The notes: generated by a model not told the origin, from the letters alone. A stretch of 64,000 bases of DNA from Minisyncoccota bacterium (GCA_036517195.1 DATDXU010000002.1:20635-84634); one strand, 5' to 3'; counted from the stretch's first letter, positions 6,964-49,851 are shown. Program-made: numbers and translations.

Positions 6964-8642
6964 TAGGCACCTCGTTTTCCATCAAGTTGAAGGGCGAGTG
7001 TTTTGATCGTGTTGTATGTATCGTCGAAGATCGTGCGCAGTACGACTGAATCTTGTTTTGCAAATCCACGCGCGTTGCGTGATTCGATATGTTCGAATAG
7101 TTTTTCGAACCCGCCTTCTGGCGTGAAGATGAAATAAGCCTTCTTGTTTTCATGTGTTTCAAGAAGTTTTTTAACATCTTGATAGGTAACGTTATTTTCT
7201 GGAAACCTCGAATCATATGCGTGCAGTATGTGCGATAGAGCGTCATGCAAATACTGCATTGCCAGTACGGCGCCCTTCTCTTTCCTTGCCTTTTCATAGA
7301 GTTCCTCAAGACGGATTTTATAGGTATCCGGAGTGCCCGAGAACATACGTGGCGCTATACGGACACCGAGCTCGGTAAGTGCGAGCGCAATCAGGATACC
7401 TGATGCGGCGATGCTTACCCACAACACGCTCTTGAGTGCTTTTCGCCCGCCCAGCGGTTTTGCGATGACGTCAAACCAGGCGTGTTCGGGCGACGGTAAG
7501 GCGCGCGGGTTTTTTTGAGGTTTGATAGTCGGAAAAAGATATGCTTCCGGCATATCTTCGAGCTTGTAACGCTCATCTATGTGCGGGCGGACAAAAAATG
7601 TCGTCGCCCGCACGGATGCCACGCGAGGAATCCCCTTGTACTGATAGGGAATCTGAAAGCTCGGAATGCTCCACTCCGTCTCCGGCGCATAGAGCCCCAT
7701 GGTGTACCTGTGTTCAAGGTACCATTCGTTGGGCCCCACCTGGCGACGTTCACTTTTTTGAAGATCTGAAACTTCCCAAAATGATGTTTGTGGAAGTTTC
7801 CCAAGCGCTACCGGCGCAAAGGTTCCTTGCATGAGCTCTGGAATATCTGTCGTCTCGATCACGACGTCACCTTCCTTGCCGAATATACGCACCCCAAGTG
7901 TTACGGTTCGTTTTTCGCCGACCGTTCCGGACACGGGAGTGACAGAAACGGTTGCGATAACTGGCGCGTGCAGGAATGCGAATTTCGGATACGCGCGCTT
8001 CACCCACACGGCGTTTGATGTATTCGTGAGATTCGCGAGAGAGAGCGCGTGAAGGGGAATTTTTTTGTCGCCCAAGAAAAACATGTTTTTGAACGACACG
8101 TGCCACGTCCCGTTTTCGGGAGTGATTTCACGCAGAGCCATGTCCTCACCAAAAAGTTCTTCGAGGGCCGCCTTCACGGTGTTTCCCGCCATGGGGGTTG
8201 TGGTTTGAATGTACATTCCATCAACCACTGCCTCCATTCCGTCAACGATGAATACGGGAGCGCTGTCGAGTGTCGCGTCTGCCGCGATACGTTGAAGGAT
8301 ACGGACCATGTCGCTTGCGTCTTGACCAGGTATGAATTCGAGTGCGAATTCCGCTCCCGAGCTCGTACTTTGAATGTCTTTGATCGCAAGCGGAGCATAG
8401 CGCTCCAAATGCTTTATGGAGGTCACTGTCTTTTGGCCTCGAAACCGCACGACAACTGACGGCGCAAGCCGTAGTGGCATACGCAATCCATTCGCCGAAA
8501 AGTAATAGAACTCTTCGCGCGAAATAATGCGCTGTTTTACTGGTGTGGTGGCGACTCGTGTCTCTGGAGGCGTTGTTTGTGCCATGCCCGAACCCGAAGA
8601 GAGGGCGAGGGCTAAGGCACAGAAGGCCAAAATGTGCCTCAT
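6963..8642 (-). CDS. BatD-like protein (signal peptide, large extracytoplasmic domain, one C-proximal TM helix, cytoplasmic tail)
   Basis: Signal peptide MRHILAFCALALALSSGSGMAQ. TM helix near residue 410 (VLWVSIAASGILIALALTELGV), followed by a roughly 125-aa tail. The assignment rests on topology and position in a Bat-type cluster. SD is taggagtaa. Confidence 0.6.
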   Translation of the reverse strand: MRHILAFCALALALSSGSGMAQTTPPETRVATTPVKQRIISREEFYYFSANGLRMPLRLAPSVVVRFRGQKTVTSIKHLERYAPLAIKDIQSTSSGAEFALEFIPGQDASDMVRILQRIAADATLDSAPVFIVDGMEAVVDGMYIQTTTPMAGNTVKAALEELFGEDMALREITPENGTWHVSFKNMFFLGDKKIPLHALSLANLTNTSNAVWVKRAYPKFAFLHAPVIATVSVTPVSGTVGEKRTVTLGVRIFGKEGDVVIETTDIPELMQGTFAPVALGKLPQTSFWEVSDLQKSERRQVGPNEWYLEHRYTMGLYAPETEWSIPSFQIPYQYKGIPRVASVRATTFFVRPHIDERYKLEDMPEAYLFPTIKPQKNPRALPSPEHAWFDVIAKPLGGRKALKSVLWVSIAASGILIALALTELGVRIAPRMFSGTPDTYKIRLEELYEKARKEKGAVLAMQYLHDALSHILHAYDSRFPENNVTYQDVKKLLETHENKKAYFIFTPEGGFEKLFEHIESRNARGFAKQDSVVLRTIFDDTYNTIKTLALQLDGKRGA

Positions 8643-8749
8643 GTGTTTATTTACTCCTATACTGTAGAGTCAATGATCACTACTTCGGATACTATATTGT
8701 ATTTTGCCCTCTCGCAATCATGGGGGGCTTGCCATGGGTTTAATGCCTT

Positions 8750-10462
8750 TTATGTGGCGGGTTTTGAACGAATCATGAAACGTTCTATATCTTCATACGT
8801 TCCCCCGACTTTTTTGCCAGGATTGAAGACTCCGTGCGGGTCGCATATGTTTTTAACCTCGGCGAACAATTCCAACATGCGCGGAGAGAACATGAGTGAC
8901 AGATAAGGGGTGCGGATAATGCCGTCGCTGTGTTCTCCCGTGATAGAACCTTTGAAACGCGCGACGAGTTCATATACTTTCGGAGTAAGTTCACGTATCA
9001 CTGTTCTGTGTTCCGGGTTCGAGAGGTCTACCAGTGGAATGATATGGAAATTTGCGTCCCCGATGTGTCCCGCGATGGTGTAGATAATGTTGTATGTTGA
9101 AAGGAGTTTTGTTAACTCCGGCAAAAAACGCGGATAGTCATCTGGGTGCACGATGATGTCGTCTATAAAGGGGGACGCGCGGAGTCCTTTAAAGTTTTTG
9201 CGCAACAACGAGAAACTTTCCCGACGAATTTTCCAGTATTTTTTCGATTCCGTTTTTCCGAATGCTAGGCGCGCCTTGATATTGATATCGTTGAGCAAGT
9301 TTTTGGCGCTACGGGCAGCTTCCTGTGCATCCTCTAAAGAGTTTTCCGCAAATTCTGCAATGAGGACGAGTTTTGGCACGCCACCGGAGAGTGTCATCCA
9401 CACTTCTGGAAGAAATGCGAGCGCCAGCGCGAGCGCTTCTCGAAGCCTCAGGTGTTGCAAAAATTGCCATCCATAGCGCACCGCGAGTTTGAATGTGTGG
9501 TCGTCGTACGATTCGAATGCTTCAGGGTTGAATTTTAAAACACGATGTACTATGTCGGGCAGGGTAGTGAGGTCTTGTAGAAATATGACGAGCATTGCGC
9601 GCGCAGTTTTTGGTTCGACAAGGGCGAATTTCGCTTTCGTAATGAACGCGAGAGTGCCTTGCGAGCCGCAGATGAGTTTCGTGAGGTCAAATGTTTTTTG
9701 TTTCTTATCTATAACATCCCACAAGGCATAGCCGGCGGAATTTTTTGAAACACGCGGACGCGCGGATTCTATTACTTCTTTGTTCGTTTCCAGAAGGGTG
9801 TGCATTTTTCGGTATACCTCTCCTTCGAATGTGTGCAGGGATTTTTTTTGAGCGAGCTCGTGTTCGGTGAGCGGTTTTAATGTTGCAGATGAGCCATCTC
9901 CAAGAACGACATCAAGCTCTTGCACGTAGCGGTCTGTTTTTCCATAGCGGAGAGAAAGTTCACCTCCCGCGTTGTCTGCAATCATGCCCCCCATGGCGCA
10001 TATTTCACGCGACGCGGGGTACGAGGGAAGGATCATACCTGTTTTTTTGAGCACCTCACGCTCAAAGTCTCGGTAGTACATTCCCGGCTCAACAGTTGCC
10101 CCATTGTGACTGGCGTCGAGTAATGTATTCATGTGTTTTGTACAGACGGCGAGAATTGAACTGGTGAGCGGTCCCCCCGTCATATCCGTTCCTCCCGCGC
10201 GCGCTGTTAAAGAAACGGCATGCCCCCGCTCTTTTTCTTTCAGAATAAAACGTACGAGGGCGGCTACATCGGAAGCGTTTTTTGGGAATACCACAACCTC
10301 TGGGGTTTGTTCAAAAATGCTCGTGTCACGACTGTACTTTTTTCGTGTCTCTGTGTCATCGAGCACCTCACCTTCAATCTGTGAGGCAATGTGGTCGCGG
10401 AGGGAAGATGTCATAGTGATAAGTATATCCCCACACGAACCACATATTCGTTTTCTAAACAT
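8750..10462 (-). CDS. FAD-linked oxidase (FAD_binding_4/PCMH-type; glycolate oxidase GlcD / D-lactate dehydrogenase-like)
   Basis: FAD-binding motif ...SLTARAGGTDMTGGPL... and the full two-domain length. The true start may be the internal ATG at 10414 (MTSSLRDH...). Confidence 0.8.
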   Translation of the reverse strand: MFRKRICGSCGDILITMTSSLRDHIASQIEGEVLDDTETRKKYSRDTSIFEQTPEVVVFPKNASDVAALVRFILKEKERGHAVSLTARAGGTDMTGGPLTSSILAVCTKHMNTLLDASHNGATVEPGMYYRDFEREVLKKTGMILPSYPASREICAMGGMIADNAGGELSLRYGKTDRYVQELDVVLGDGSSATLKPLTEHELAQKKSLHTFEGEVYRKMHTLLETNKEVIESARPRVSKNSAGYALWDVIDKKQKTFDLTKLICGSQGTLAFITKAKFALVEPKTARAMLVIFLQDLTTLPDIVHRVLKFNPEAFESYDDHTFKLAVRYGWQFLQHLRLREALALALAFLPEVWMTLSGGVPKLVLIAEFAENSLEDAQEAARSAKNLLNDINIKARLAFGKTESKKYWKIRRESFSLLRKNFKGLRASPFIDDIIVHPDDYPRFLPELTKLLSTYNIIYTIAGHIGDANFHIIPLVDLSNPEHRTVIRELTPKVYELVARFKGSITGEHSDGIIRTPYLSLMFSPRMLELFAEVKNICDPHGVFNPGKKVGGTYEDIERFMIRSKPAT

Positions 10463-33821: not shown

Positions 33822-35960
33822 ATGTCCGAAGGCGCACGCACATCAAAAATACTTACTTTAGAGGAACTCAAAAGCGACATATACAAAAGTGAGTTTTGGA
33901 AAGAAATGCCCTTTGGGGAATACTTGAATCTTGCACATACGTTTCCATCGGTTTCAAATTCCGCGTATCAGCGAATGTACAAAACGATTGTAGGTCAGGG
34001 CATGCATCCTTACAAATTTGCGGGCCGTGACTACATTCATTACACTGCTTTCGATGATCCGTGGGAAGATGGAAAAGACGCAGTGTTTGGTCTTGATCGG
34101 ACACTCATGCGTCTCGTTGATGTGCTTCGTGCGGGAGCCGCTCGTCTCGGACAAGAACGTCGCATTATCCTGATGCATGGTCCGGTTGGTTCTTGTAAGA
34201 CCACAATCGCGCGCCTTCTTCGGAAAGGGATTCAGGCAAACACCAAGACAGACGCCGGTCAGTTATATACATATTCGTGGCTTGCGAAAACTGACGAAGA
34301 TCGCCTCATTCTCGGACTTTCGTCGTCAAGCGATGCTCAACGAATACATAACAAGGTTTCCTGTCCTGTTCACGAAGATCCGCTGATGTTGCTACCTCCA
34401 GATGCGCGCGGACAAGTGGTTGCAAAAATGAATTGCGTTTCCACTAAGGGGACTGAGCGCGGTCGCGAAGAACTCATTGAGTTCGAGGGCGAACTATGTC
34501 CTGTGTGTCGTCTGATGTATCAAGGATTTCTGCGTAAGTATAAGGGAGACTGGAAGAAAGTAATTTCGGAACACATAGAAGTGCGTCGGCTCATCTTCTC
34601 CGAAGTTGACCGTATCGGCATTGGTTCGTTTCGTCCGAAGGACGAGAAGAATCAGGACTCCACTGAATTAACCGGTGACATGAACTATCGCAAGATTGCG
34701 GAGTATGGTTCGGAGTCTGATCCTCGCGCGTTTAATTTTGACGGTGAGTTTCAGGTTTCCCATCGTGGCTTCTTCTATGTAGAAGAGGCGCTCAAACTTG
34801 ACAAAGCGTTTTTGTACGACTTTCTCGGCGCAAGCCAAGAGCATGTCGTAAAACCGAAGCGTTTCGCGGAGATGTTTATCGACGAGGTTCTTATGGCTGG
34901 TACGAATAATCCAGAATATGAGAAGCTTCGAGAAGACGATAGCATGGAAGCGTTTCGCGATCGAACGACGCGTGTTGATGTCCCGTATGTCCTTCGTCTT
35001 GACGATGAGAAACGCATCTATAACAAGGTGTATGCTACTATCTCTGGAGGAAAACACATCGCTCCACACACACGAGAAATGGCATCACTGTGGGCGATTT
35101 TCACGCGCCTCAAAAATTCTGAAAGAGAAGTGACGCGTGGGCTCAAACTTAGAGACAAGGCGCGCCTGTATAACGGGAAGGTTGTACATGGATATACTGA
35201 CGAACATGTGCAGGACCTTCTGGGTGAGCATCCCGAGGAAGGAATGAGTGGTATTTCTCCTCGATATGTGAACGACATGATAGGTGCTGCTATTGTGAAG
35301 GATCTTCAGGCGCCGTGCACATCGTGGTTCGCCGTTAAGCGTGAACTCGAAGACGGTCTCAAAACCCACTCTCTCATCAAGGGAAGTAAGGGTTCTGGTA
35401 AACGCGAGGACTATCTAAAATATCTTTCCTATGTTATGGAAGAGTTCGATAATATAGTCAAAGAAGAAGTGCAAGAGGCGGTTGCTGGAGATGAAAATGA
35501 TCTCAAGCAGTTGTTTGAGAAATATGTTAATCATCTGGTCGCATATATCAACGGCGAAAAAGTTCTCGATCATCGAGGAGAGCGCGTTGTTCCAGACGAA
35601 CGCCTCATGCGTGAAGTCGAAGAAAAGATTGAAGTTAGTCCGCAACACAAAGATGAATTTCGTCGTCGAGTCGTGCAAACTATGGGTACACGGGCAAGAC
35701 GCAAGGAAGAGTTTAATTACAAAACGGATGAACGTTTGTATCGCGCCTTGCGTTTAAAGTTGTTTGAAGACCGCAAGGACACCATTAACCTCTCAACTCT
35801 GCATACAGGGGTTATTGATCCTGGAGAGCAGGAGAAGATTGAGGTGGTGAAGAAGCGTCTCAAGCAAAACGCGGGGTACTGTGATCATTGTGCAACGCTG
35901 GTTTTGAACCACGTCGCGTCCATTTTTGCACGCGGAACAAGCACGAAAAACAAGGCCTAA
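33822..35960 (+). CDS. prkA: PrkA-family AAA+ protein (putative serine protein kinase PrkA/YeaG)
   Basis: N-terminus resembles YeaG/PrkA (SAYQRMYKTIVGQG vs SAYANAAERLLMAI). Walker A ILMHGPVGSCKTTIARLL. Length is 712 aa. SD is aggaaagagagg. Confidence 0.8.
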   Translation: MSEGARTSKILTLEELKSDIYKSEFWKEMPFGEYLNLAHTFPSVSNSAYQRMYKTIVGQGMHPYKFAGRDYIHYTAFDDPWEDGKDAVFGLDRTLMRLVDVLRAGAARLGQERRIILMHGPVGSCKTTIARLLRKGIQANTKTDAGQLYTYSWLAKTDEDRLILGLSSSSDAQRIHNKVSCPVHEDPLMLLPPDARGQVVAKMNCVSTKGTERGREELIEFEGELCPVCRLMYQGFLRKYKGDWKKVISEHIEVRRLIFSEVDRIGIGSFRPKDEKNQDSTELTGDMNYRKIAEYGSESDPRAFNFDGEFQVSHRGFFYVEEALKLDKAFLYDFLGASQEHVVKPKRFAEMFIDEVLMAGTNNPEYEKLREDDSMEAFRDRTTRVDVPYVLRLDDEKRIYNKVYATISGGKHIAPHTREMASLWAIFTRLKNSEREVTRGLKLRDKARLYNGKVVHGYTDEHVQDLLGEHPEEGMSGISPRYVNDMIGAAIVKDLQAPCTSWFAVKRELEDGLKTHSLIKGSKGSGKREDYLKYLSYVMEEFDNIVKEEVQEAVAGDENDLKQLFEKYVNHLVAYINGEKVLDHRGERVVPDERLMREVEEKIEVSPQHKDEFRRRVVQTMGTRARRKEEFNYKTDERLYRALRLKLFEDRKDTINLSTLHTGVIDPGEQEKIEVVKKRLKQNAGYCDHCATLVLNHVASIFARGTSTKNKA

Positions 35961-35975
35961 CTATGGGCATGTGGG

Positions 35976-36012
35976 GGGACGGAAGGTGTAACCTTCCGTC
36001 CCTTTCTTTTTT
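35976..36012 (+). terminator. rho-independent terminator ggacggaagg-tgtaa-ccttccgtcc + ctttctttttt
   Basis: 10-bp perfect stem plus a T-run, directly after prkA. Confidence 0.7.
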
Positions 36013-36069
36013 AAATACCCATGAGAGTATGTACATAGAATAGATAGGTACAAAGAAAGGTAGGGTGCG

Positions 36070-37308
36070 ATGACAAGACGTATTACGCAAGATGAACAAG
36101 AATTTCTCGACATCCTTCGTGGAAAGTGGCGTACGGGTGAGCTATTGAAATATTTGCAACGTGGCCAGATAACCATTCTTGGTCCCGGCAAAGGTTTCAG
36201 CATCCCCATGGAAGAAATCATTATTCCTCGGGCACACCTTGCCCCCATACCACCTGACGCAGAGTTGCAAGAAACGGGTGATGGGAAAGAGGGTGACGCA
36301 AATGTTGGTCCGGATATTGGCATAGGGCAAGGTCCAGGAAAACCCGGAACTGACCTCGGTCCAGTTGAGGGTGATGACGGAGAGGGAAGTGAGGGAGGAG
36401 AACGCTCGGCCGGAAGTGGTCGCGGGGGCGACGTCGAGCGTGTTGAGGTTCCTGCTGATGAGGCGTATGAGCTTTTTGCAGAAATGCTCGAACTTCCCCG
36501 TATTCAACCGAAGGGTGACAAGTCGATTACAAAAGAAGAGTGGAAATATACAGATATTCGGAAAACTGGACCCGATTCACTTGTACACAGACGCCGTACG
36601 CTCAAAGAAGCCTTGAAACGCAATATCGCAGAGGGAACGTATGTGCCGGAGCGTCCACGAATTATTGTTGAACGTCCCGACAAACGGTACCGTATTCCGG
36701 AAGTTATCAAAAAGCCAAAAAACAACGCAGTCATCTTCTTCATGATGGATGTGTCTGGTTCCATGACCTCCGAGGATAGAAAAATGGTGCGTTATTTTTG
36801 CGCACTGTTTGAATTTTGGCTCGTTGGAAATTTTGATGGTATAGAGATTGTGTGGATTATTCACGACGGAGAGGCCGATCGTGTTGATCGCGATACATTC
36901 TTCAATACCTTTCGCGCAGGAGGAACGGTGGTTTCAACGGCGCATGCGCTTATGCTCAAGATTATTGACGAAGAGTTCCCGCCAGCGAATTGGAATATTT
37001 ATCCAGTGTATCTTTCAGACGGGTTCAATTTCGGTGATGACGATGACCTGTGTCTGGAACTTATACGAGAAAATACTCTTCCAGTTGTAAATCAATATAC
37101 GTACTGTGAAGTTTCTGCTGAACGCGAGTGGTGGGGAGCCACACTTGCAGAGGGCGGAGATCCGAATAGTCGCTTCTCTCCCTCGGGAAGTTTTGGAAAA
37201 ATGCTCCAAGACAATTTTTCCAATGACACTCGGGTTGCATGTACGAACCTGAAGAAGATACAAGACATTCCTGGGGCACTGAAAGCAGTATTCGGAAAAG
37301 GAAACTAA
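36070..37308 (+). CDS. YeaH/YhbH-like protein (DUF444, vWA-like)
   Basis: MIDAS-like MMDVSGSMTSEDRKM. Gly/Asp/Glu-rich low-complexity N-region as in YeaH. Positioned between prkA and spoVR. Confidence 0.75.
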   Translation: MTRRITQDEQEFLDILRGKWRTGELLKYLQRGQITILGPGKGFSIPMEEIIIPRAHLAPIPPDAELQETGDGKEGDANVGPDIGIGQGPGKPGTDLGPVEGDDGEGSEGGERSAGSGRGGDVERVEVPADEAYELFAEMLELPRIQPKGDKSITKEEWKYTDIRKTGPDSLVHRRRTLKEALKRNIAEGTYVPERPRIIVERPDKRYRIPEVIKKPKNNAVIFFMMDVSGSMTSEDRKMVRYFCALFEFWLVGNFDGIEIVWIIHDGEADRVDRDTFFNTFRAGGTVVSTAHALMLKIIDEEFPPANWNIYPVYLSDGFNFGDDDDLCLELIRENTLPVVNQYTYCEVSAEREWWGATLAEGGDPNSRFSPSGSFGKMLQDNFSNDTRVACTNLKKIQDIPGALKAVFGKGN

Positions 37309-37319
37309 GGAGGAATATC

Positions 37320-39539
37320 ATGACTGCAACTCTTCGCGTACGACCACAATTTCCGACGCACTTGAAACATTGGAAGTATGAAATCGAGCGGATTGCCAAA
37401 AGACTCGGTCTTGAATTATATCCGACCGATTTTCAAATGGTGGACCATGAAGAAATATCCGAACTTGCCGCATACCAGGGGTTTCCTGTTCGGGGACACC
37501 ACTGGTCCTACGGACAAGAAAGTTTGCGTATGAAAAAATCGTATCGATGGGGTCTCCACATTATCTATGAGATGGTTATTCCTACGAATCGACCGTGCTA
37601 TGCATATCTTCTTGATGTAAATCCCGATAGCATTCAAAAACAGGTGATGGCGCACGTCTATGGCCATAACGACTTTTTCGGAAGAAACATTTGGTTTCGA
37701 GATGTGCCGGGGAATCTCCATGATCGTTTCGGCGATAATGCAATGCGCCTTGAGGAGATGCGTCTTGAACACGGCAAAGAGAAGGTGGATAGGTTTCTTG
37801 AGGCCTGTATGTCTCTCGATAATCTCTTCAATCCTCTTGACCCTCTTGAGTTACAAATTTCGCCTCCCCAGTCTCTTGCGGGATCTTTACCAGGTCCCAT
37901 GAAAGAGAAGCGTCATCCGAAACGTCTTATTTCGAACGAGGCGTTGCCGGGATACATGGATGAATACATTAATCCTCCAGAGTGGCTTGATGAAGAGAGG
38001 CGGCGTCTGGCAGAAGAAGAAAAAGTAAAATCTGATATTGCGCGCGGTGTGCGTGTTCCTGAAAAGCCGATTCGTGACATCCTCGGCTTTGCTCTTGTGC
38101 ACGCCCCTCTAGAGCCATGGCAACAAGAAGCCGTACGTATGGTACGTGAAGAAAGTCAACCTCTATGGAAAGGTGCCCAAACAAAATTTATGAATGAGGG
38201 GTGGGCGGCTCTTTGGGAAGCGGAAATTATGGCTGGTCAGGGCGTTGCACTTGATTCAGAGGTGTGTTCTTTCGCGCAGGCGTATGCCGGTGTACAGGGA
38301 GGTGAAGGTTCCATCAACCCGTATCGTCTCGGTAAACAATTGTGGGACGATATCAGAATGCGATGGGATACCGGTCGGCATGGGCGAATCTGGAACGAGT
38401 GTGTTGACGGCACAATTAAGAAACGATGGGAGGAATTCATTGTATTCAAGTCCCTCTATGATGAGCATGGAGGTGCGACCAGTGAATTTTCCAAAGAGTG
38501 GGATGAGTTTGTTACCCTTGTTCACGAAACCCGCGAGGGCCGTGGGTGCGTACGGAATGCCTTTTTTCTTCCAGAAAACGTTGTCACAGAGTGGTTATAC
38601 TATAAGAAATCCGTAGAAAAACTTAAGGAACTTCAAATAGCCATGAGGGATGTGCTCGAGCTGGAGGCAAAGGCACGCACATCTACCAAAAACGGCGATG
38701 AGGAAAAAACCGCGTGGTTTAAACGTCGGTGGGATGCGATCAAGATCTCCAACTCTCCCCATCGCTTCTGGTCTTCCAAAGAACTACAAGTTGAAATTGA
38801 TCGTTGTACGTTCTACATACAGTTTAAGGAACGTATTTCAAAGGGGGATGTGGCTGTGTTGCAGACCCCAATTCCACACGAGTGGGTGTATTGGGCGAAA
38901 CGTCACGAACTCCTTGGTGGTCTCGGCAAAGGGCTCGAAAAAATGTTTGAGGTGTGTGCGACGCACAATGACGCAAGCTTTGTTGACGACTTTTTTACTT
39001 CCGATTTTTGTGCTAGACATGGGTACTACACAATCGGCATGGGAAAATCGTCTCAACAGCCGTTCGCGAGCGAGGACCGATATGTTATCAGTTCTCGTAA
39101 TCACTTGCGTGTGAAGCGCCTCCTCCTCAACATGCTTCTCGGAAAGCCGAAGATATTGTTGGTTGATGCGAACTTCAACAATAATAACGAGTGGCGTCTC
39201 ATTCATCTTCACGACGGTCGCGATATTTGTTACGCGGGTTGTCACATCTGCAACGGCAAGAGCAGTATGAAAGATGTGATGGAGAGGATATACATCGTAT
39301 GGAATAGAAAGAAGGCGGTGCACCTTGAAACAATTAAAACAGAATGGCCAAAACGGAAACCACCCTGGTACTACTGGTATCCGCCCGGTTGGTCAGGGCC
39401 GGAAATCGAAAGACCTAAACATCGATGGGTTCGATACTCGTGCATAGATGATGTGCACGCGACCAATGTTTTACCGTTCGAGAGTGTGGATGAAGATATA
39501 AGAAAACTTCTCCCCCACATTCCAGATACTCTTGAGTAA
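37320..39539 (+). CDS. spoVR: SpoVR/YcgB-family protein
   Basis: ELAAYQGFPVRGHHWSYGQE...WGLHIIYEMVI...AHVYGHNDFF matches the SpoVR N-terminal core. Start at ATG 37320 with an aaggagga SD; the track ORF extends 27 codons further upstream into yeaH. Confidence 0.8.
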   Translation: MTATLRVRPQFPTHLKHWKYEIERIAKRLGLELYPTDFQMVDHEEISELAAYQGFPVRGHHWSYGQESLRMKKSYRWGLHIIYEMVIPTNRPCYAYLLDVNPDSIQKQVMAHVYGHNDFFGRNIWFRDVPGNLHDRFGDNAMRLEEMRLEHGKEKVDRFLEACMSLDNLFNPLDPLELQISPPQSLAGSLPGPMKEKRHPKRLISNEALPGYMDEYINPPEWLDEERRRLAEEEKVKSDIARGVRVPEKPIRDILGFALVHAPLEPWQQEAVRMVREESQPLWKGAQTKFMNEGWAALWEAEIMAGQGVALDSEVCSFAQAYAGVQGGEGSINPYRLGKQLWDDIRMRWDTGRHGRIWNECVDGTIKKRWEEFIVFKSLYDEHGGATSEFSKEWDEFVTLVHETREGRGCVRNAFFLPENVVTEWLYYKKSVEKLKELQIAMRDVLELEAKARTSTKNGDEEKTAWFKRRWDAIKISNSPHRFWSSKELQVEIDRCTFYIQFKERISKGDVAVLQTPIPHEWVYWAKRHELLGGLGKGLEKMFEVCATHNDASFVDDFFTSDFCARHGYYTIGMGKSSQQPFASEDRYVISSRNHLRVKRLLLNMLLGKPKILLVDANFNNNNEWRLIHLHDGRDICYAGCHICNGKSSMKDVMERIYIVWNRKKAVHLETIKTEWPKRKPPWYYWYPPGWSGPEIERPKHRWVRYSCIDDVHATNVLPFESVDEDIRKLLPHIPDTLE

Positions 39540-43332: not shown

Positions 43333-44397
43333 ATGAAAAGTCAAGATGTTGTATACGTTGGTCTTTCGGGTGGAGTGGATTCCGCCGTTTCGGCGGCGCT
43401 GTTACAGAAACAGGGGTATGACGTCGTTGGTGTTTTTATAAAAATATGGCAACCGGAATTTTTGGAATGCACGTGGGAGAGAGACCGGCTTGACGCTATG
43501 CGAGTCGCGGCGCATCTTTCCATACCATTTCGAGAGATTGATTTGTCGCAAGAATATAAAAAATATGTTGTTGAGGAAATGGTCGCCGGATACAAGCGCG
43601 GCGAAACTCCAAACCCAGATACGGCCTGCAATCAGTACATAAAATTTGGCACTTTTTTTGACTGGGCGCGAAATGAAGGTGCGTCATATGTTGCGACGGG
43701 TCACTACGCGCGTATAGGCACACGAGAAAAAAAATATACACTCTTACGCGGGAGCGACACGATGAAAGATCAGTCGTATTTTCTCTATACACTTACACAA
43801 GAACATCTCGCTCACGCCCTGTTTCCGATAGGGGATATGAAAAAAAGTGACGTGCGTATTTTGGCGGGAAAAATGAGCATACCGACGGCGCGCAAGCCCG
43901 ACAGTCAGGGGTTGTGCTTTGTGGGAGATGTATCTATGGGCGAATTTCTTTCTCGGTACATTCCGCAAAAAACTGGAGTTGTAGAAAATATGAAGGGTCG
44001 TGCGATTGGTACACACGGGGGGGCCGCGCTGTACACCACGGGGCAAAGGCACGGCTTTTTCGTATTTAAAGAAGAGAACATTCCACACTTCGTTGTTTCA
44101 ACGGACACGAAACGCAATGTCATAATAGTGTCTTCCCGCAAAGAACAGTGGGCGACGAAAAACGTTGCGCTTAGAGATGTGCACTGGATTTCAGGGGCGC
44201 CGAGTGCGTCTGAAAGAATAGTGGTGGAAGTGCGGTATCGCGGTCGTGCAACTCCGTGCACGGTTACAGATAGGGTGGGCAGGGCAGTGGTGGCCCTTGA
44301 TGAGGCATGTGTTGTTGCTTTAGGGCAAGTGGCCGTGTTCTATCGAGAAGATGAGTGCCTCGGTGGTGGCACCGTGTCGGGTACATATCTTGGGTGA
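43333..44397 (+). CDS. mnmA: tRNA-specific 2-thiouridylase
   Basis: PP-loop VYVGLSGGVDSAVSAALL, a Cys at about position 100, and a C-terminal barrel region typical of MnmA. Confidence 0.9.
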   Translation: MKSQDVVYVGLSGGVDSAVSAALLQKQGYDVVGVFIKIWQPEFLECTWERDRLDAMRVAAHLSIPFREIDLSQEYKKYVVEEMVAGYKRGETPNPDTACNQYIKFGTFFDWARNEGASYVATGHYARIGTREKKYTLLRGSDTMKDQSYFLYTLTQEHLAHALFPIGDMKKSDVRILAGKMSIPTARKPDSQGLCFVGDVSMGEFLSRYIPQKTGVVENMKGRAIGTHGGAALYTTGQRHGFFVFKEENIPHFVVSTDTKRNVIIVSSRKEQWATKNVALRDVHWISGAPSASERIVVEVRYRGRATPCTVTDRVGRAVVALDEACVVALGQVAVFYREDECLGGGTVSGTYLG

Positions 44398-44465: not shown

Positions 44466-44879
44466 ATGATGATGACGTATGGTGTTCTTCGACGGCTCGC
44501 GTGGATTGCAATTGTTGCGAGTTTTGTTGCATACAGTACCTATTTTGTGCTCGGGGGTGCAATTGAAGCAGATGCGTCTTCGGCCTTAAAGCGCGTTGTT
44601 GCTCGTGACATTATTCAAAATGGGGCACATCATTTGAGTGGTATGGTATTCGTGCCGAGCGGATGTCATGAACTATCTACCAGTGTTCAGGCTCTGGATT
44701 CTGTAACGAATGTAATTACATTTGAAACGTGGGAAGCGCCCTATGTAGAATGTGTCCGGGAACCCGTCCCGAGAGCATTTCGTGTTATAGCATTTGCACC
44801 GTCTCCCGATACGCGATTTTTTGCCACCCTTGACGAAGAGGTCATACCTTTTGTAGTTATCGTTGTCGACACGCCATAA
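44466..44879 (+). CDS. hypothetical membrane-anchored protein (137 aa)
   Basis: One N-terminal TM helix. Ends 2 nt before the next gene, so it is operonic. Confidence 0.45.
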   Translation: MMMTYGVLRRLAWIAIVASFVAYSTYFVLGGAIEADASSALKRVVARDIIQNGAHHLSGMVFVPSGCHELSTSVQALDSVTNVITFETWEAPYVECVREPVPRAFRVIAFAPSPDTRFFATLDEEVIPFVVIVVDTP

Positions 44880-44881
44880 CT

Positions 44882-45706
44882 ATGGAACACATTCTAATTA
44901 CCAAGGCAGATGGGGAGGAGGAGATATTTAATCCAAACAAGCTCGCGCGCTCGCTCGAACATGCCGGGGCTTCGCGTGAAGCGCAAAAAAAAGTGCTTGC
45001 GCGCGTTATGGGGGCACTGCGTCCACTCATGAAAACAGAAGAAATTTATCGGACTGCGTTTGAGGAGTTGCGGCGCGTGGAAGAAAAACCAATTGCGGCG
45101 CGCTATTCAATAAAACGCGCCGTGCTTGATTTGGGGCCATCGGGATTTCCTTTCGAACAATTTCTTGCCGAAGTATTGCGGGCGCATGGGTATGTGTGCC
45201 GTGTCGGGGTGGCACTGACGGGACGGTGTGCTCCGCATGAGGTAGATGTGCTCGCCGAAAAGGGGGAGAGGCGCATTGGCATTGAGGCAAAGTTTCATAA
45301 TGACGCGAGTGGGAAAACAGATATCAAAGATGCGCTCTATGTCCGTGCGCGATACGACGATTTGGCGCATGCCCCGGAAGCGTCTTCGCGTGTGAATGAG
45401 TGGTGGCTTGTTACGAATACGCGCTTTACATACAACGCAATTCAATATGCGCAGTGTTCAAACCTCACACTCGTTGGCTGGGATTATCCGCGGACGAAAA
45501 GTTTAGTGGCGCTCATCGAAGAGGCGCGCGTGCACCCACTGACGTGCCTCACAACATTGTCTGAAGGTGAAAAACGCCGATTTTTAGAAGAGAGAATTGT
45601 GTTATGCAAAAATGTGCAGACACCTCACTTGCTCAGGGAGTATGGGGTGGAACCGAATCGCATTCCGGACGTTCTCGATGAGGCGAAGCGCTTGTGCGGA
45701 ACATAG
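44882..45706 (+). CDS. ATP-cone domain fused to a Mrr/restriction-endonuclease-like PD-(D/E)xK nuclease domain
   Basis: N-terminal HILITKADGEEEIFNPNKLARSLEHAG...ARYSIKRAV fits the ATP-cone (V.KRDG..E.F...KI ... Y..Y). Then EVDVLAEKGERRIGIEAKFH (D...ExK) and WWLVTNTRFTYNAIQYAQ...TLVGWD resemble the Mrr catalytic core. Confidence 0.6.
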   Translation: MEHILITKADGEEEIFNPNKLARSLEHAGASREAQKKVLARVMGALRPLMKTEEIYRTAFEELRRVEEKPIAARYSIKRAVLDLGPSGFPFEQFLAEVLRAHGYVCRVGVALTGRCAPHEVDVLAEKGERRIGIEAKFHNDASGKTDIKDALYVRARYDDLAHAPEASSRVNEWWLVTNTRFTYNAIQYAQCSNLTLVGWDYPRTKSLVALIEEARVHPLTCLTTLSEGEKRRFLEERIVLCKNVQTPHLLREYGVEPNRIPDVLDEAKRLCGT

Positions 45707-45728
45707 GGGTGCTGTAGCATGTATACAT

Positions 45729-46232
45729 ATGATCGGACCGGAACTTCTCCTTGTTGACCCGACGCTCACCACAGTTGGCAAATTATTGTTCGCGGCACTT
45801 CTCGGTGCCATTATGGGAACGGAGCGCGGAGTTTTGGCGCGCCAGGCGGCAGGGACCAGAACATTCGCACTCGTTGCTCTTGGATCATGCCTCCTTGTCG
45901 CCACGTCCATGCAGGTGGATTTGGCATACCTTGGATATTCTAATTTTGATCCCATGCGTGTCGCCGCCGCAATCGTGCAGGGTATAGGATTCATAGGAGC
46001 GGGCATCATCATCTTTCGCGGAACGACAGTGCACGGCACGACGACTGCCGCGGGGCTCTGGATGGCGGCGGCTGTCGGTATTGCAGTCGGGTATGGATTT
46101 TACACACTTGCCATGGTTTCAACACTCATAACACTTATCGTGTTAGTTGTGATGTGGTACATTGAAAATCGTTTCAAACAATGGTTTGCGGAAAAGGCGT
46201 CTCAAGGAGACGAGGGAATGCGTTCCAGCTAA
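45729..46232 (+). CDS. MgtC/SapB-family membrane protein (membrane domain only)
   Basis: LLFAALLGAIMGTERGVLARQAAGTRTFALVALGSCLL is the MgtC family signature. Confidence 0.8.
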   Translation: MIGPELLLVDPTLTTVGKLLFAALLGAIMGTERGVLARQAAGTRTFALVALGSCLLVATSMQVDLAYLGYSNFDPMRVAAAIVQGIGFIGAGIIIFRGTTVHGTTTAAGLWMAAAVGIAVGYGFYTLAMVSTLITLIVLVVMWYIENRFKQWFAEKASQGDEGMRSS

Positions 46233-46274
46233 TTTTTCTCACGTTTTGAAATATAGTGCGGTATACTATTTTCC

Positions 46275-47081
46275 ATGCCCCGCGGATATCAAAAGCGCAC
46301 GCGCGGATTATTTGATCCGAACTCAAAGGAACCATTCCGTATTAGTCGTTCAAAAATAGATTTATTTATTGACTGTCCGCGCTGTTTTTATTTGGATCAA
46401 CGACTCGGTGTGAAGCGCACCGATTTCCCGGCGTTTACACTCAACAATGCCGTCGATGAATTATTGAAGCGCGAGTTCGATATACACCGCGCGAAAGGAG
46501 AACCACATCCTCTTATGAGACAGTACAAGATTGATGCGACCCCGTTGAACGATCTGCGCATGGAAGAGTGGAGAGACGCTCTTCGCCGCGGGGTGCAATA
46601 CCACCACGCAAAAACAAATTTAATTGTGCGCGGCGGGGTGGATGATATATGGGTAACGCAGGGTGGGGAATTTATCGTTGTTGATTACAAGGCAACATCT
46701 AAAAAAGACGAAGTGTCCCTTGATGGGTACTGGCAACAGGCGTACAAGCGACAAGTGGAAGTGTACCAATGGATTTTGCGCGGAATGGGGGAGCGTGTTT
46801 CCAATGTGGCATATTTTGTATATGTGAACGGAAATAGTGATGCTGCATCATTTGACGGTAAGTTGGAGTTTAGTGTTACTGTTCTTCCGCACAAAGGGGA
46901 TACATCGTGGATTGAACCAACGATTATTGAAATTGCGCAGGTGTTGAGGGGAGACGCGGTGCCGGAGCCAAAAGAAACATGCGAATACTGCGGATACAGG
47001 GAAGCGGCAGGGAGAGAGCTTCAGGCGCGTGTTGGACCAAAAAGCAAAGCGCGCAAAAGTTCTCCGACACTCGGTATCTAA
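46275..47081 (+). CDS. Cas4/RecB-like PD-(D/E)xK nuclease with four-Cys cluster (standalone, no CRISPR locus)
   Basis: N-terminal CPRC and C-terminal CEYC form the Cas4-type Fe-S ligands. Motif II GGVDDIWV, motif III IVVDYKAT (DxK) and the QxxxY-like QVEVYQWIL. Confidence 0.65.
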   Translation: MPRGYQKRTRGLFDPNSKEPFRISRSKIDLFIDCPRCFYLDQRLGVKRTDFPAFTLNNAVDELLKREFDIHRAKGEPHPLMRQYKIDATPLNDLRMEEWRDALRRGVQYHHAKTNLIVRGGVDDIWVTQGGEFIVVDYKATSKKDEVSLDGYWQQAYKRQVEVYQWILRGMGERVSNVAYFVYVNGNSDAASFDGKLEFSVTVLPHKGDTSWIEPTIIEIAQVLRGDAVPEPKETCEYCGYREAAGRELQARVGPKSKARKSSPTLGI

Positions 47082-47219: not shown

Positions 47220-48212
47220 ATGAATACGAAGGGGATTAGCATAAACTTTGACCGTCTGGGTATGGTTGCGAAGCATCTTGCTGGCAGACCATACTCTGCG
47301 CCGTTCAATTTTTACTCCATCACGAACGCGTCTGGTGAGTCGCCCTTGCTCACGCAGTTCCCATCGCCCATTCAGGGGGAGCATGCTGTTCTCGAATTCT
47401 TTTTTGCCGAAACTTTGCAAGAGCATGGTTTTTGGCAAGAAAAATACGGGCGGTGGCAATCATCCATTCGGGGAACTATTAATGGGAAGAAATTGAAAGG
47501 TTCAGACCTCATGTGCCATCTACTGATGTTGGAGTTGAGGAAAAGTGAGACACAGTTTAAGCCTTCGACACTCGCCACCATGCAGTTCAGTCGTTTTATG
47601 GAAATCATGCATGACGATCTCGGTGCTATCGATTTTCCTGATATGCCGAAACGGTATATGTTGTGGCGTCTGTATGCCGAGTGGATGGTTTCTCGGAGTG
47701 AATCGCCCCACGGCATCATTGAGAAGGCGCGTGAATCAAAAACGCCGGCACAAACATTCCTCGGACTTCTGAAGGAGATACCGGGATTCAACGAAGACCC
47801 ATTCCAAAAGAAATCAAACCTTCTTCTCATGTATGTGATGAATCGTCCCGAACGATTCATCGTTCCAGAGCTCGGGTTCTCTCTGCCTGCGATGATTGAT
47901 TACCACGTGATGCGTCTTCTTCTGCGCTTCGGCGTCGTGTGTCTTTCCGCAGAGTTGCGCATTGAAAATCAGGCGCGGAGTGTCATATTGGAAGAAAGGG
48001 AAGCGACTATTCGCCATGTGTGCGAAATAGCGATGAACGAACTTGTTTCTCGCTCTAGGCTTCCGATGTCGGAAGTTGATGCACTTTTGTGGAATGGACG
48101 GGAGTTTTGTCTCGAGGCGACCGAACCTGATTGTGGACGATGTTCTCTTCGGGCTGTGTGTGCTCAAGAAACAAAACTCTTTCAGCCGGTGTACCGAACC
48201 ACGCACTACTAG
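47220..48212 (+). CDS. divergent HhH-GPD-superfamily (EndoIII/MutY-like) glycosylase-like protein with C-terminal Cx7Cx2Cx5C motif
   Basis: MIDYHVMRLLLRFGVV parallels EndoIII vDTHvfRv.nRlg. C-terminal CLEATEPDCGRCSLRAVC parallels the EndoIII [4Fe-4S] loop Cx6Cx2Cx5C. The overall sequence is very divergent. A queuosine-salvage (DUF2419)-like identity could not be excluded. Confidence 0.45.
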   Translation: MNTKGISINFDRLGMVAKHLAGRPYSAPFNFYSITNASGESPLLTQFPSPIQGEHAVLEFFFAETLQEHGFWQEKYGRWQSSIRGTINGKKLKGSDLMCHLLMLELRKSETQFKPSTLATMQFSRFMEIMHDDLGAIDFPDMPKRYMLWRLYAEWMVSRSESPHGIIEKARESKTPAQTFLGLLKEIPGFNEDPFQKKSNLLLMYVMNRPERFIVPELGFSLPAMIDYHVMRLLLRFGVVCLSAELRIENQARSVILEEREATIRHVCEIAMNELVSRSRLPMSEVDALLWNGREFCLEATEPDCGRCSLRAVCAQETKLFQPVYRTTHY

Positions 48213-48268: not shown

Positions 48269-48523
48269 ATGCAAACATTTAGAGACAAAGTGCGATGTAT
48301 TGTTTCAAAAATCAAACGAGGTGAAACGCTGACCTATGGAGAAGTTGCTCGGATGGCGGGAAATTCGCGTGCGGCACGTGCCGTTGGCGCAATCATGCGC
48401 GCAAATCGAAGCAAGAGTGTTCCGTGTCACCGAGTCATTTTCTCCGACGGAGGGCTTGGTGGATATAATCGAGGGGGAACGAACATAAAGAGGTATATTT
48501 TGAAACAAGAAGGCGCTCTATGA
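48269..48523 (+). CDS. MGMT-family (methylated-DNA-protein-cysteine methyltransferase) DNA-binding/active-site domain protein, stand-alone
   Basis: YGEVARMAGNSRAARAVGAIMRANRSKSVPCHRVI has the PCHRV active-site motif. Only about 85 aa, corresponding to the C-terminal domain alone. ggag SD. Confidence 0.75.
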   Translation: MQTFRDKVRCIVSKIKRGETLTYGEVARMAGNSRAARAVGAIMRANRSKSVPCHRVIFSDGGLGGYNRGGTNIKRYILKQEGAL

Positions 48524-49119
48524 TGAAGGCGGATATACACGAAGCAATGAAGCGTGTTCGAGACGACGTTATTGCTCTTGGGGGCGAACTTTCTACATAT
48601 AGAAAACAAAATAATTATTTTCCCGTGCTCGGAGAGGGGAGCCACACGGCAAAAATCATGTTCATTGGGGAGGCGCCGGGCAGGAATGAAGCAAAAACGG
48701 GGCGTCCATTTTGTGGAGCGGCGGGGCGTATTTTGGATGACCTTTTAGCGTCTATTGGTATGCCACGCGAAGATGTGTATATCACAAACATCGTGAAAGA
48801 CAGACCGCCGGAAAATAGAGACCCGTTGCCTGTGGAAATTGAATTGTACGCACCGTTTTTAGACAGACAAATTGAAATTATTCAACCGAACGTTCTTGCG
48901 ACACTCGGCAGGTTTTCCATGGAGTACATCATGCGAAAGTTCGGACTCTCGTTTGAATTGGAGTCCATCAGTAACGCACACGGAAAAGTGTATGATGCGT
49001 CAGCTTCGTACGGTCCCATAAAAATTGTGCCCCTCTATCACCCCGCGGCGGCTATATACAATCAATCGCTCAAAGGCACCCTCAAAAAAGATTTTCAGGC
49101 GCTCAAAAAATTGCGGTAG
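48520..49119 (+). CDS. uracil-DNA glycosylase, family 4/5 type
   Basis: GEAPGRNEAKTGRPFCGAAGRILDDLL is the UDG4 motif. A second motif region is ...PLYHPAAA. ATGA overlap with the preceding gene. Confidence 0.85.
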   Translation: MMKADIHEAMKRVRDDVIALGGELSTYRKQNNYFPVLGEGSHTAKIMFIGEAPGRNEAKTGRPFCGAAGRILDDLLASIGMPREDVYITNIVKDRPPENRDPLPVEIELYAPFLDRQIEIIQPNVLATLGRFSMEYIMRKFGLSFELESISNAHGKVYDASASYGPIKIVPLYHPAAAIYNQSLKGTLKKDFQALKKLR

Positions 49120-49140: not shown

Positions 49141-49851
49141 CTACCAAGGTCTTACCTTGGTAGAAACCTTGTCGTCTTCCGAATGTGCGTATATTTTTGC
49201 CTCTTCAATTAATTGTGACACAGATTGAGGTGTCTCCAAGATCTCAAGGACGGCGTCTTTGTTGATGAGGGAACTTTCTGGGCGGATTTCATCTGAACAG
49301 TAATCAGGGAAACTCGAATAACGATATTTTGATAAAAAAGATCTCAATCTCCTTTCATTTCTGACTACGCCTTTTTTCCAAGCAGACTCGATCAATTCGG
49401 CTGGGTTTGCGTGGATATAGCTTACGACTCTGTTGAAATTTTGGTCGGACACGATTCGTTTTGATTTAAAAGCACCCTGAAACAAAGACCCACTACGTTC
49501 GTACTTAATATTGAAGTACATTGCATACCCCGTTCCCACTCGACGCATAAAAGATGTTATGCCTCCAGGGTCGTGTTCACGTAGAAGTAAGTGATAATGA
49601 TTTGACATGAGACAGTATGCGCCAATGTCTACTAGTGTTTCTTTTCTCTCAACTGTCGCCATAACATCTACTAAGGTCTTACCTTGGTAGATGTTGCTGA
49701 CATGAATTGAATCGTGACTGTTGCACGCATAGAGGAGCATCAAGAAGCGCTCATGGTCTTTTGGATTCTCAAAGATGGTGCGCTTTTCAACGCCACGGTT
49801 GAAGCAGTGATACCACTCATTTGGTGCGAAGGGTGATGCGCGTTCGGCCAT
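49141..49851 (-). CDS. IS200-like / REP-associated tyrosine (Y1, HUH) transposase
   Basis: HUH motif CLMSNHYHLLL and catalytic-Tyr motif VVSYIHANP. Length 236 aa. The stop codon lies inside the left palindrome. Confidence 0.75.
   Translation of the reverse strand: MAERASPFAPNEWYHCFNRGVEKRTIFENPKDHERFLMLLYACNSHDSIHVSNIYQGKTLVDVMATVERKETLVDIGAYCLMSNHYHLLLREHDPGGITSFMRRVGTGYAMYFNIKYERSGSLFQGAFKSKRIVSDQNFNRVVSYIHANPAELIESAWKKGVVRNERRLRSFLSKYRYSSFPDYCSDEIRPESSLINKDAVLEILETPQSVSQLIEEAKIYAHSEDDKVSTKVRPW

Follow-up and report, generated by a model that had tools for sequence, protein, structure and literature searches.

An ATP-cone joined to an AF1548-type nuclease in a conserved gene string of Paceibacteria

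We analysed 64,000 nucleotides of a Minisyncoccota bacterium (GCA_036517195.1, DATDXU010000002.1:20635-84634; this whole stretch is called the window below), around four co-directional open reading frames (ORFs), g1 to g4, found on the + strand between positions 44466 and 47081. The second of them, g2, joins an ATP-cone to a nuclease core of the AF1548 type, and the fourth, g4, is a predicted nuclease of the RecB/Cas4 family. On balance, though with some reserve, we favour reading g1-g4 as part of a housekeeping string that Paceibacteria inherit vertically, in which g2 would be an adenylate-gated housekeeping endonuclease linked to repair. The four ORFs lie where an earlier note on this DNA had placed them, and the gaps between them, 2, 22 and 42 nt, span the range that it had given. 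The features are the following:

44466..44879, + strand: g1, 137 aa, small membrane-anchored protein with an N-terminal transmembrane segment
44472 (start), + strand: g1 in the public gene call, 135 aa
44882..45706, + strand: g2, 274 aa, ATP-cone, AF1548-type PD-(D/E)xK nuclease and AF1548-like C-terminal helical domain
44894..45118, + strand: ATP-cone of g2, residues 5-79 (Pfam PF03477, Foldseek)
45143..45475, + strand: PD-(D/E)xK core of g2, residues 88-198 (Pfam Mrr_cat, alignment of 36 sequences)
45488..45700, + strand: C-terminal helical domain of g2 (AF1548-like_C), residues ~203-273 (1y88 alignment, PF22357)
45729..46232, + strand: g3, MgtC/SapB-family membrane protein, 167 aa (Pfam MgtC); start taken at ATG 45729, as in the public gene call and in homologues, the mechanical ORF opening further upstream at TTG 45597
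46275..47081, + strand: g4, predicted stand-alone RecB/Cas4-family PD-(D/E)xK nuclease, 268 aa (Pfam, PADLOC, NCBIfam)

The ATP-cone that the earlier note had read at the start of g2 withstood profile search, as residues 5-79 matched Pfam PF03477 with 29.2 bits against a gathering score of 25.8 (E 1.4e-6). Residues 88-198 matched Mrr_cat (E 2.1e-10), and residues 94-273 could be aligned to residues 23-197 of AF1548 (PDB 1y88, E 8.3e-26), the C-terminal domain corresponding to residues ~120-197 of that structure; PF22357 (AF1548-like_C) is recorded on g2 homologues. In the Pfam scan no match to the winged-helix domain Mrr_N was found in g2, the N-terminus being the ATP-cone. An AlphaFold2 model built with 36 family representatives had a predicted local distance difference test score (pLDDT) of 96.3 and a predicted template modelling score of 0.91; residues 1-85 exceeded a pLDDT of 90, and helices were modelled at 208-273. 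With this model, Foldseek aligned residues ~90-273 to AF1548/1y88 (E 1.8e-16, TM-score 0.80 on the target), and the N-terminus to the cones of Escherichia coli NrdA (E ~1e-3, probability 1.00) and to the NrdR entries 7p37 and 9fxk. Other structural neighbours of the nuclease domain were the restriction-fold nucleases MspJI, NucS, Can2 and Cdn1. Pfam, model and Foldseek therefore agree on the fusion of a cone to an Mrr-like nuclease that had been claimed for g2. The C-terminal helical domain would be a nucleic-acid-binding module.

Conservation was examined in an alignment of the 36 representatives, which are 34-57% identical. The catalytic residues E92, D122, E135 and K137 are invariant, and so are K20 in the cone, the linker G85-P-x-G-x-x-F-E92, the motifs H119-E120-x-D122 and E135-x-K137, and R157, D160 and N179. 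Within the cone, K8 is conserved in at least 90% of the sequences, and the AARY motif is conserved as well. The motifs quoted earlier for g2 (HEVDVLA, IEAKFH and TLVGWD) are present. D122, E135 and K137 fall in the same D...ExK motif as D38, E51 and K53 of AF1548, a match made by motif and not residue by residue; these three were proposed as catalytic in the Global Ocean Sampling paper that predicted AF1548 to be a restriction-type nuclease (PMC1821046). Since the PD-(D/E)xK active site is invariant, g2 is taken as a predicted metal-dependent endonuclease. Intact catalytic residues in homologues, which the earlier note had proposed to look for, were thus found for g2, and also for g4 (D124, D137-x-K139 and Q160..Y164).

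Three known proteins help to place this architecture. AF1548 of Archaeoglobus fulgidus (structural genomics, function unassigned; Mrr_cat plus AF1548-like_C, COG1787) has, like g2, the D...ExK motif and the same C-terminal helical domain, but with 199 aa and ~22 residues before the nuclease core it has no ATP-cone. Over its first ~80 residues, g2 can be superposed on the E. coli NrdA cone and on those of the NrdR proteins from S. coelicolor and E. coli. As in g2, the cone of NrdR is fused to a presumed nucleic-acid-binding module, and gating by ATP/dATP through the oligomeric state would apply to g2 by extension; NrdR, however, is a repressor that combines its cone with a zinc ribbon and has no catalytic site, whereas in g2 the cone is followed by an intact PD-(D/E)xK nuclease. 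No nrd gene linked to g2 was seen in any locus. Finally, the Mrr_cat family is common to g2 and to Mrr, a type IV modification-dependent restriction endonuclease, from which g2 differs by the absence of Mrr_N, by its ATP-cone and AF1548-like_C domain, by slow evolution, and by housekeeping synteny with no defence island.

The family to which g2 belongs is large. More than 3,000 clusters of homologues at 90% identity were obtained from one query; at 50% identity there are 1,098 clusters with E<1e-3, 410 of them with E<1e-30, and nearly all members are 265-300 aa long with the full architecture. They occur in Patescibacteria, Bacteroidota (Cyclobacteriaceae, Cytophagales, Flavobacterium, Pontibacter), Chlamydiota (on a Criblamydia plasmid) and Thermoproteota archaea. 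Sequences from different phyla and domains still share 37-46% identity, an archaeal homologue being 46% identical to a Kaiserbacteria g2; judged by these values, divergence across phyla and domains is unusually slow. No relative of g2 was detected by tblastn in 50,697 phage records, by a scan of 2.9 M viral contigs with the most conserved motif of the family, or by comparison with PHROG, and a phage or mobile origin of g2 was rejected on these grounds. The family is ancient, slowly evolving and strictly cellular, and in genome-reduced bacteria of the candidate phyla radiation (CPR) g2 appears to be a core gene.

In databases, members of the family are named only 'restriction endonuclease', 'ATPase' or 'ATP cone domain-containing protein'. 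We found no functional literature on the g2 family or on the cluster, only the prediction made for AF1548 and a superfamily catalogue entry, where 1y88/COG1787 is listed only within the Mrr_cat group (Steczkiewicz et al. 2012, PMC3424549). The earlier note had not recognised a described system here, and we likewise found no paper describing one. The architecture of g2 is nevertheless already catalogued, its nuclease part has a crystal structure, and many public metagenome-assembled genomes (MAGs) carry the same cluster. The locus is a further member of a catalogued but functionally unstudied family, in an ordinary genomic setting. What appears unreported is an association of the family, across phyla, with cation pumps and with a module of β-CASP and nucleoside-phosphorylase genes, described below.

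To place the cluster, the adjoining genes are needed:

43333..44397, + strand: mnmA (tRNA 2-thiouridylase), upstream neighbour of g2 (Pfam)
48269..49119, + strand: short MGMT-family protein (84 aa, PCHR motif) and UDG-superfamily protein (PF03167) (Pfam, gene calls)

The window comes from a Candidatus Kaiserbacteria/Paceibacterota bacterium of the CPR, and its gene order is identical on the public contig ENA ERZ4903055 k141_2340362. Writing Cas4L for the Cas4-like gene (g4 in the window), the order mnmA-(g1)-g2-MgtC-Cas4L-MGMT was found in 48/48 loci of related genomes, every locus coming from a separate species-level MAG, with a single-sequence query that returned only close (Kaiserbacteria) relatives; in these loci UDG and alaS often follow MGMT. 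The 80 metagenome loci obtained with a family profile extend the string to relatives at 41-53% identity, in a scan ranked by similarity to the query, which under-samples lineages outside the CPR. Additional contexts retrieved by exact look-up agree with them, and taken together these loci carry the string, with inserts that vary, to relatives at 36-53% identity. ORF coordinates in all these related loci are mechanical, taken from the first start codon. The full string reads (sigma-r4/HARE-HTH)-DUF8128-mltG-mnmA-[small transmembrane protein]-g2-[DUF7282]-[MgtC]-[Cas4L]-[MGMT]-[PCMT/HD]-[UDG]-[pepF]-alaS, where the genes in brackets are present or not depending on the lineage. It is co-directional in more than 100 public loci of Kaiserbacteria and other Paceibacteria, and one g2 locus was recovered on a complete Kaiserbacteria chromosome of 859 kb (CP066682). 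A chance juxtaposition, one of the outcomes that would have undone the earlier note, is therefore not what the loci reveal: the arrangement is far beyond chance. MGMT and/or UDG lie downstream of Cas4L in most related loci, and in another CPR lineage g2 was observed behind a HIT hydrolase.

Loci were divided into close and distant ones by the identity of their g2 to that of the window; for mnmA, counted when upstream of g2, the denominators are informative loci only:

Close loci (at least 55% identity): MgtC 54/56, Cas4L 55/56, mnmA 53/55, P-type ATPase 0/56
Distant loci (below 55% identity): MgtC 13/57, Cas4L 17/57, mnmA 30/47, P-type ATPase 14/57

Mean identity to the window copies among Kaiserbacteria was 69% for g2, 66% for alaS, 56% for MgtC, 55% for Cas4L, 54% for mnmA and 40% for g1, which makes g2 the best conserved gene of the block, UDG excepted. 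The GC content and skew of the g1-g4 cluster are those of its flanks, composition being uniform across the region. The string is vertically inherited housekeeping, neither a mobile nor a patchy island.

A nuclease of the Cas4/RecB type with four cysteines had been announced for g4, and the profiles bear this out (Pfam PDDEXK_1, E 1.2e-14; Cas_Cas4, E 8e-6). The RecB-family motifs D123/D124, D137-Y-K139 and Q160...Y164 are invariant, as are the cysteines C34, C37, C236 and C239, which include the quoted CPRC and CEYC motifs and form a CxxC...CxxC pattern linking the N- and C-terminal segments. In Cas4 the usual pattern is one cysteine plus three. Searches of the PDB with the g4 sequence and with a profile gave no significant match; the AlphaFold2 model (pLDDT 87.9) was matched by Foldseek to the AdnAB nuclease domains, MGME1, RecE, Cas4 (4ic1, 8d3l), λ exonuclease and EXO5. 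The g4 sequence is also found, at 100% identity, in a database entry named 'PD-(D/E)XK nuclease family protein [Candidatus Paceibacterota]'.

Like Cas4, AddB, AdnAB and EXO5, g4 thus has the D...DxK...QxxxY motifs, four cysteines bridging the termini, and the matching fold. It differs from Cas4 in that the score against the Cas4 equivalog TIGR00372, 40.7 bits, stays below the cutoff of 65, no cas1, cas2 or array turned up in the scans, and the gene stands alone, in synteny with MGMT and UDG. The absence of a CRISPR setting, already remarked on in the earlier note, was seen again: a scan of 20 proteins, taken from the cluster and from ~5 kb on either side, revealed no Cas protein, no cas gene was found in those related loci whose context was examined, and the 64 kb contain no tandem or CRISPR-like array. 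Because g4 falls below the Cas4 cutoff, with no cas gene in the flanks and no array, it is classed as a predicted stand-alone exonuclease-type protein of the RecB/Cas4 family. The Cas4-like gene was also observed to be bimodal among Kaiserbacteria, being 45-55% identical to the window copy in 36 loci and 67-76% in nine, beside a g2 that is unimodal (59-75%). The pattern would fit two diverged alleles, or xenologues, that replace each other in situ.

The two remaining genes encode membrane proteins, as had been proposed. The match of g3 to Pfam MgtC is strong (E 5.6e-33, 114.3 bits for a cutoff of 31.4); the NCBIfam equivalogs of MgtC are not reached (NF007431, 101 for a cutoff of 214; NF011912, 84 for 255). 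With 167 aa, g3 is too short to include the soluble C-terminal domain found in the enterobacterial MgtC models, which are 215-231 aa long, and by its sequence it carries the MgtC membrane domain only. This sets it apart from Salmonella MgtC, with which it shares that membrane domain. For g1, an N-terminal transmembrane segment was found, and no match in Pfam, NCBIfam, PADLOC or PHROG. Homologues of g1 (30-48% identity) lie between mnmA and g2 in 29/48 Kaiserbacteria loci, and the gene is restricted to this lineage. It is homologous to the protein cluster c27 (hhalign 99.7%), which is located after MgtC in one locus (L116). Other small membrane proteins or lipoproteins found near g2 elsewhere (DUF7282 c11, c24 and c37) were compared with g1 and proved unrelated.

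Outside Patescibacteria the neighbours of g2 are different, in a sample of about 21 loci dominated by Bacteroidota. Among 16 loci with no mnmA context, 10 have a P-type ATPase and one has Cas4L; by inspection the latter (L127) has the Patescibacteria-type order. The g2/Cas4-like pairing therefore occurs in 0/15 loci of the non-Patescibacteria type. In several contigs, among them Flavobacterium (L129), Cytophagales (L130/131), Cyclobacteriaceae-like ones and others (L105/L121/L123, L107, L135-L137), the start of a P-type cation ATPase gene overlaps the stop of g2; in L126 the two adjoin with a gap of ~250 nt. The ATPase of L107 is a bona fide MgtA (755 bits for a cutoff of 611); the remaining ATPases resemble type IIA and do not reach the equivalog cutoffs. 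An ArsR-type regulator often stands ahead of the pair in Bacteroidota. Operons made of an ArsR-type helix-turn-helix protein, g2 and the ATPase (L129, L130/L131, L135-L137) were seen within metal-resistance neighbourhoods with HMBD, CusB, ACR_tran and multicopper oxidase, and one Bacteroidota g2-ATPase copy lies in a conjugative-transposon region, beside TraM and DUF4138. Within Patescibacteria, two Parcubacteria loci (L074, L082) have a P-type ATPase two genes downstream of g2.

Other transporters flank g2 elsewhere, namely CDF (L100), ZIP (L111/L118) and NhaA (L112), and in L080 the order is P-type ATPase, g2, MgtC/DUF4010 fusion, PPK2 and β-CASP. A second recurrent arrangement consists of a β-CASP metallo-β-lactamase (MBL) nuclease, a thymidine-phosphorylase-family protein (~506 aa) and Prs, placed after g2 or after the ATPase in Bacteroidota and on two plasmids:

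L138, Criblamydia sequanensis plasmid NZ_LK031773, 12749-17356: g2 homologue, β-CASP MBL hydrolase, thymidine-phosphorylase-family protein, ribose-phosphate pyrophosphokinase
L139, Pontibacter actiniarum plasmid NZ_CP021236: module of g2 homologue, β-CASP, thymidine-phosphorylase-family protein, ribose-phosphate pyrophosphokinase

The Criblamydia module sits among a P-type ATPase, phosphoketolase, GlgP and acetate kinase, and looks like a polymer-mobilisation and energy island. In another lineage a sigma factor, g2 and β-CASP follow each other. The archaeal copy (L140, Thermoproteota contig, 5001-9372) is a full-length homologue of 266 aa with its ATP-cone, directly upstream of the small and large subunits of replication factor C and beside Orc1/Cdc6, a replication-gene context. 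P-type ATPase, β-CASP, thymidine-phosphorylase-family, Prs and PPK2 genes were searched for in the 64-kb window, and none was found; this is a further difference from Salmonella mgtCB, which the family recalls elsewhere by its P-type ATPase neighbours, a true MgtA included.

On the reading that we favour, g2 would act as a metal-dependent endonuclease through E92, D122, E135 and K137, and ATP or dATP bound to the cone would set its activity or its oligomeric state, by analogy with the ribonucleotide reductases (RNR) and NrdR. It would probably serve nucleic-acid maintenance or turnover, beside a repair sub-block made of g4, MGMT and UDG, with g4 as a likely end-processing partner. MgtC (g3), and perhaps g1, would be co-transcribed membrane proteins, and the adjacency of g3 to g2 would mirror the cross-phylum link of the family with Mg2+ and cation-transport genes. 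Since the g2-MgtC pairing alone is echoed across phyla, as MgtC or as P-type ATPase, a functional link between these two may exist. A second nuclease stands downstream of g2 both here (Cas4-like) and elsewhere (β-CASP), which leaves room for an endonuclease/exonuclease partnership, i.e. a DNA-processing module. Of the 'defence or DNA-processing' module suggested by the earlier note, this second half is plausible; the first half is not supported, given the housekeeping string and the lack of viral relatives.

Several observations weigh against this reading. In the canonical cones of RNR and NrdR an Arg follows the first Lys, and the residue following K8 in g2 is not a conserved Arg; the case for ATP/dATP binding would thus consist of the fold and of the conserved K8 and K20. 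Scans of the cluster for promoters and terminators gave counts equal to background, and co-transcription is presumed. UDG abuts or overlaps g2 just as tightly in loci where MgtC and Cas4L are absent. More generally, synteny extends over the entire string, so that conservation may reflect functional coupling or inheritance alike, and as the partners of g2 differ between phyla, no single pathway is implied. RNA is as possible a substrate of g2 as DNA.

A first alternative, which we consider unlikely, is that g2 belongs to a module of cation and energy homeostasis, its functional partner being MgtC in this genome and P-type cation ATPases in others, with the Cas4-like gene as an unrelated neighbour. 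In such a module g2 would be a regulator or effector responsive to ATP and to divalent metals, controlling transporter genes, or degrading RNA or ribosomes to adjust Mg2+ and ATP. Overlaps of g2 with P-type ATPase genes are met again, between other flanking genes, in several lineages of Bacteroidota and in further clades; in L074/L082 the ATPase lies two genes downstream, in L080 g2 is flanked by an ATPase and MgtC-DUF4010, MgtC comes after g2 in 54/56 close loci and in 13/57 distant ones, and CDF, ZIP and NhaA occur nearby. In Salmonella, moreover, MgtC shares a transcript with the P-type ATPase MgtB and reduces ATP. However, many Patescibacteria loci have neither MgtC nor a P-type ATPase, and around g2 no transporter is seen in the archaeal locus or in some CPR loci. 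A regulator of the ArsR type is already found upstream of g2 in Bacteroidota, the invariant catalytic residues favour catalysis over mere binding, and the sample outside Patescibacteria is small and mostly made of Bacteroidota.

It could also be that the four genes have no functional relationship, and are unrelated neighbours in a compact, syntenic CPR genome whose short gaps reflect compaction only. The string does mix unrelated functions (mltG, mnmA, alaS, pepF, PCMT), any gene that comes after g2 (MgtC, Cas4L, UDG, MGMT or DUF7282) is equally tight, some lineages do without MgtC, some without g1 and some without Cas4L, and an insert of 330 aa, unique to this genome, separates Cas4L from MGMT. 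This explanation is doubtful to us all the same, because MgtC or a P-type ATPase recurs beside g2 in unrelated phyla, a second nuclease (β-CASP) often follows g2 outside Patescibacteria, in parallel to the Cas4-like gene, and proteins of the g1 type stay in the cluster even where their position has moved (L116).

A bolder proposal concerns the family as a whole: g2 proteins would be adenylate-sensing, possibly also Mg2+-sensing, nucleases that trigger nucleic-acid breakdown or repair, and that are wired to cation pumps and to a salvage module of β-CASP, nucleoside(AMP)-phosphorylase-family and Prs proteins. Such a function would be ancient and shared by Archaea, CPR, Bacteroidota and Chlamydiota, with RNA or ribosomes perhaps as the target, and with energy and cation status as the cue. 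We regard it as speculative and hold it quite unlikely in this complete form.

The reading as an anti-phage module, or one directed against mobile genetic elements, where an ATP/dATP-sensing nuclease would fire upon a change of the nucleotide pool in infection, assisted by the Cas4-like exonuclease, is very improbable: the position from mnmA to alaS is fixed, between housekeeping genes of the chromosome, in more than 100 loci, g2 is under strong purifying selection (it is conserved like alaS, with 37-46% identity across phyla and domains), there are no viral relatives, no system-level PADLOC match and no compositional island, and the partners in other phyla are metabolic and transport genes. 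Nucleases of the Mrr_cat and Cas4 types are common in defence systems, g4 matches PHROGs of phage exonucleases, one Bacteroidota copy lies in a conjugative-transposon region, and MspJI and the ligand-gated Can2 and Cdn1 are structural neighbours of the g2 nuclease domain. Like g2, for which sensing is predicted, Can2/Card1 and Cdn1 combine a small-molecule sensor with a restriction-fold PD-(D/E)xK nuclease; the sensor of g2 is, however, an ATP-cone and not CARF or SAVED, its context is neither CRISPR nor CBASS, and its distribution is housekeeping-like. Weak domain matches were also obtained with PADLOC (ZorD nuclease domain for g2, E 4.9e-5; Cas4 profiles for g4, down to E 1.8e-11). With the PADLOC-DB 2.0 profiles nothing was found for g1, g3 and g5, and nothing significant in the ±5 kb flanks; at this level of profile matches, which is not that of the full PADLOC/DefenseFinder rules, no complete catalogued defence system is co-located, and there are no other defence genes within ±5 kb. 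The pairing of the two nucleases, which had reminded the earlier note of defence modules, was not seen outside Patescibacteria, and this too speaks against such a module.

Some other features of the window were recorded. Between g4 and MGMT, an ORF of 330 aa (47220-48212, + strand) carries a C-terminal CX9CX2CX5C motif, its only match being a sub-threshold one to Q_salvage (PF10343); homologues were found in 0/128 related loci, which points to an insertion specific to this genome. From its position in the repair sub-block and its cysteine motif, it might be glycosylase-like. For g5, a sequence search of the PDB gave no significant match. An ORF of the IS200-like Y1 transposase family (Y1_Tnp, E 7e-7; 49141-49851, - strand) lies between UDG and alaS, with homologues near the cluster in L030 and L043 only. 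Further upstream (33822-39539, + strand), DUF444 (YeaH-like) and SpoVR genes precede the E1 genes of pyruvate dehydrogenase, following the annotation of the identical public contig; the ORF of 712 aa before them would fit PrkA by its context, and a starvation-response trio of PrkA type, DUF444 and SpoVR would, if so, be notable for a CPR genome. In the whole 64 kb no tRNA gene was found, and no Rfam family reached its gathering score, the M-box riboswitch near MgtC included.

As a defence candidate, this locus matters little; its neighbourhood is an ordinary, inherited one of housekeeping and repair genes. The part worth keeping is the g2 family, a compact three-domain protein with a model of very high confidence and 37-46% identity between Archaea and Bacteria. 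To our knowledge, ATP-cones have so far been understood only as regulators of ribonucleotide reduction, in RNR and NrdR, and a nuclease governed by such a cone, if true, would extend that paradigm. Should the wider adenylate-sensing proposal be right, it would amount to a new and widespread use of ATP-cone allostery outside ribonucleotide reduction. The adjacency of g2 to P-type ATPases, MgtC and β-CASP/nucleoside-phosphorylase genes leads to hypotheses that are testable in cultivable Bacteroidota.

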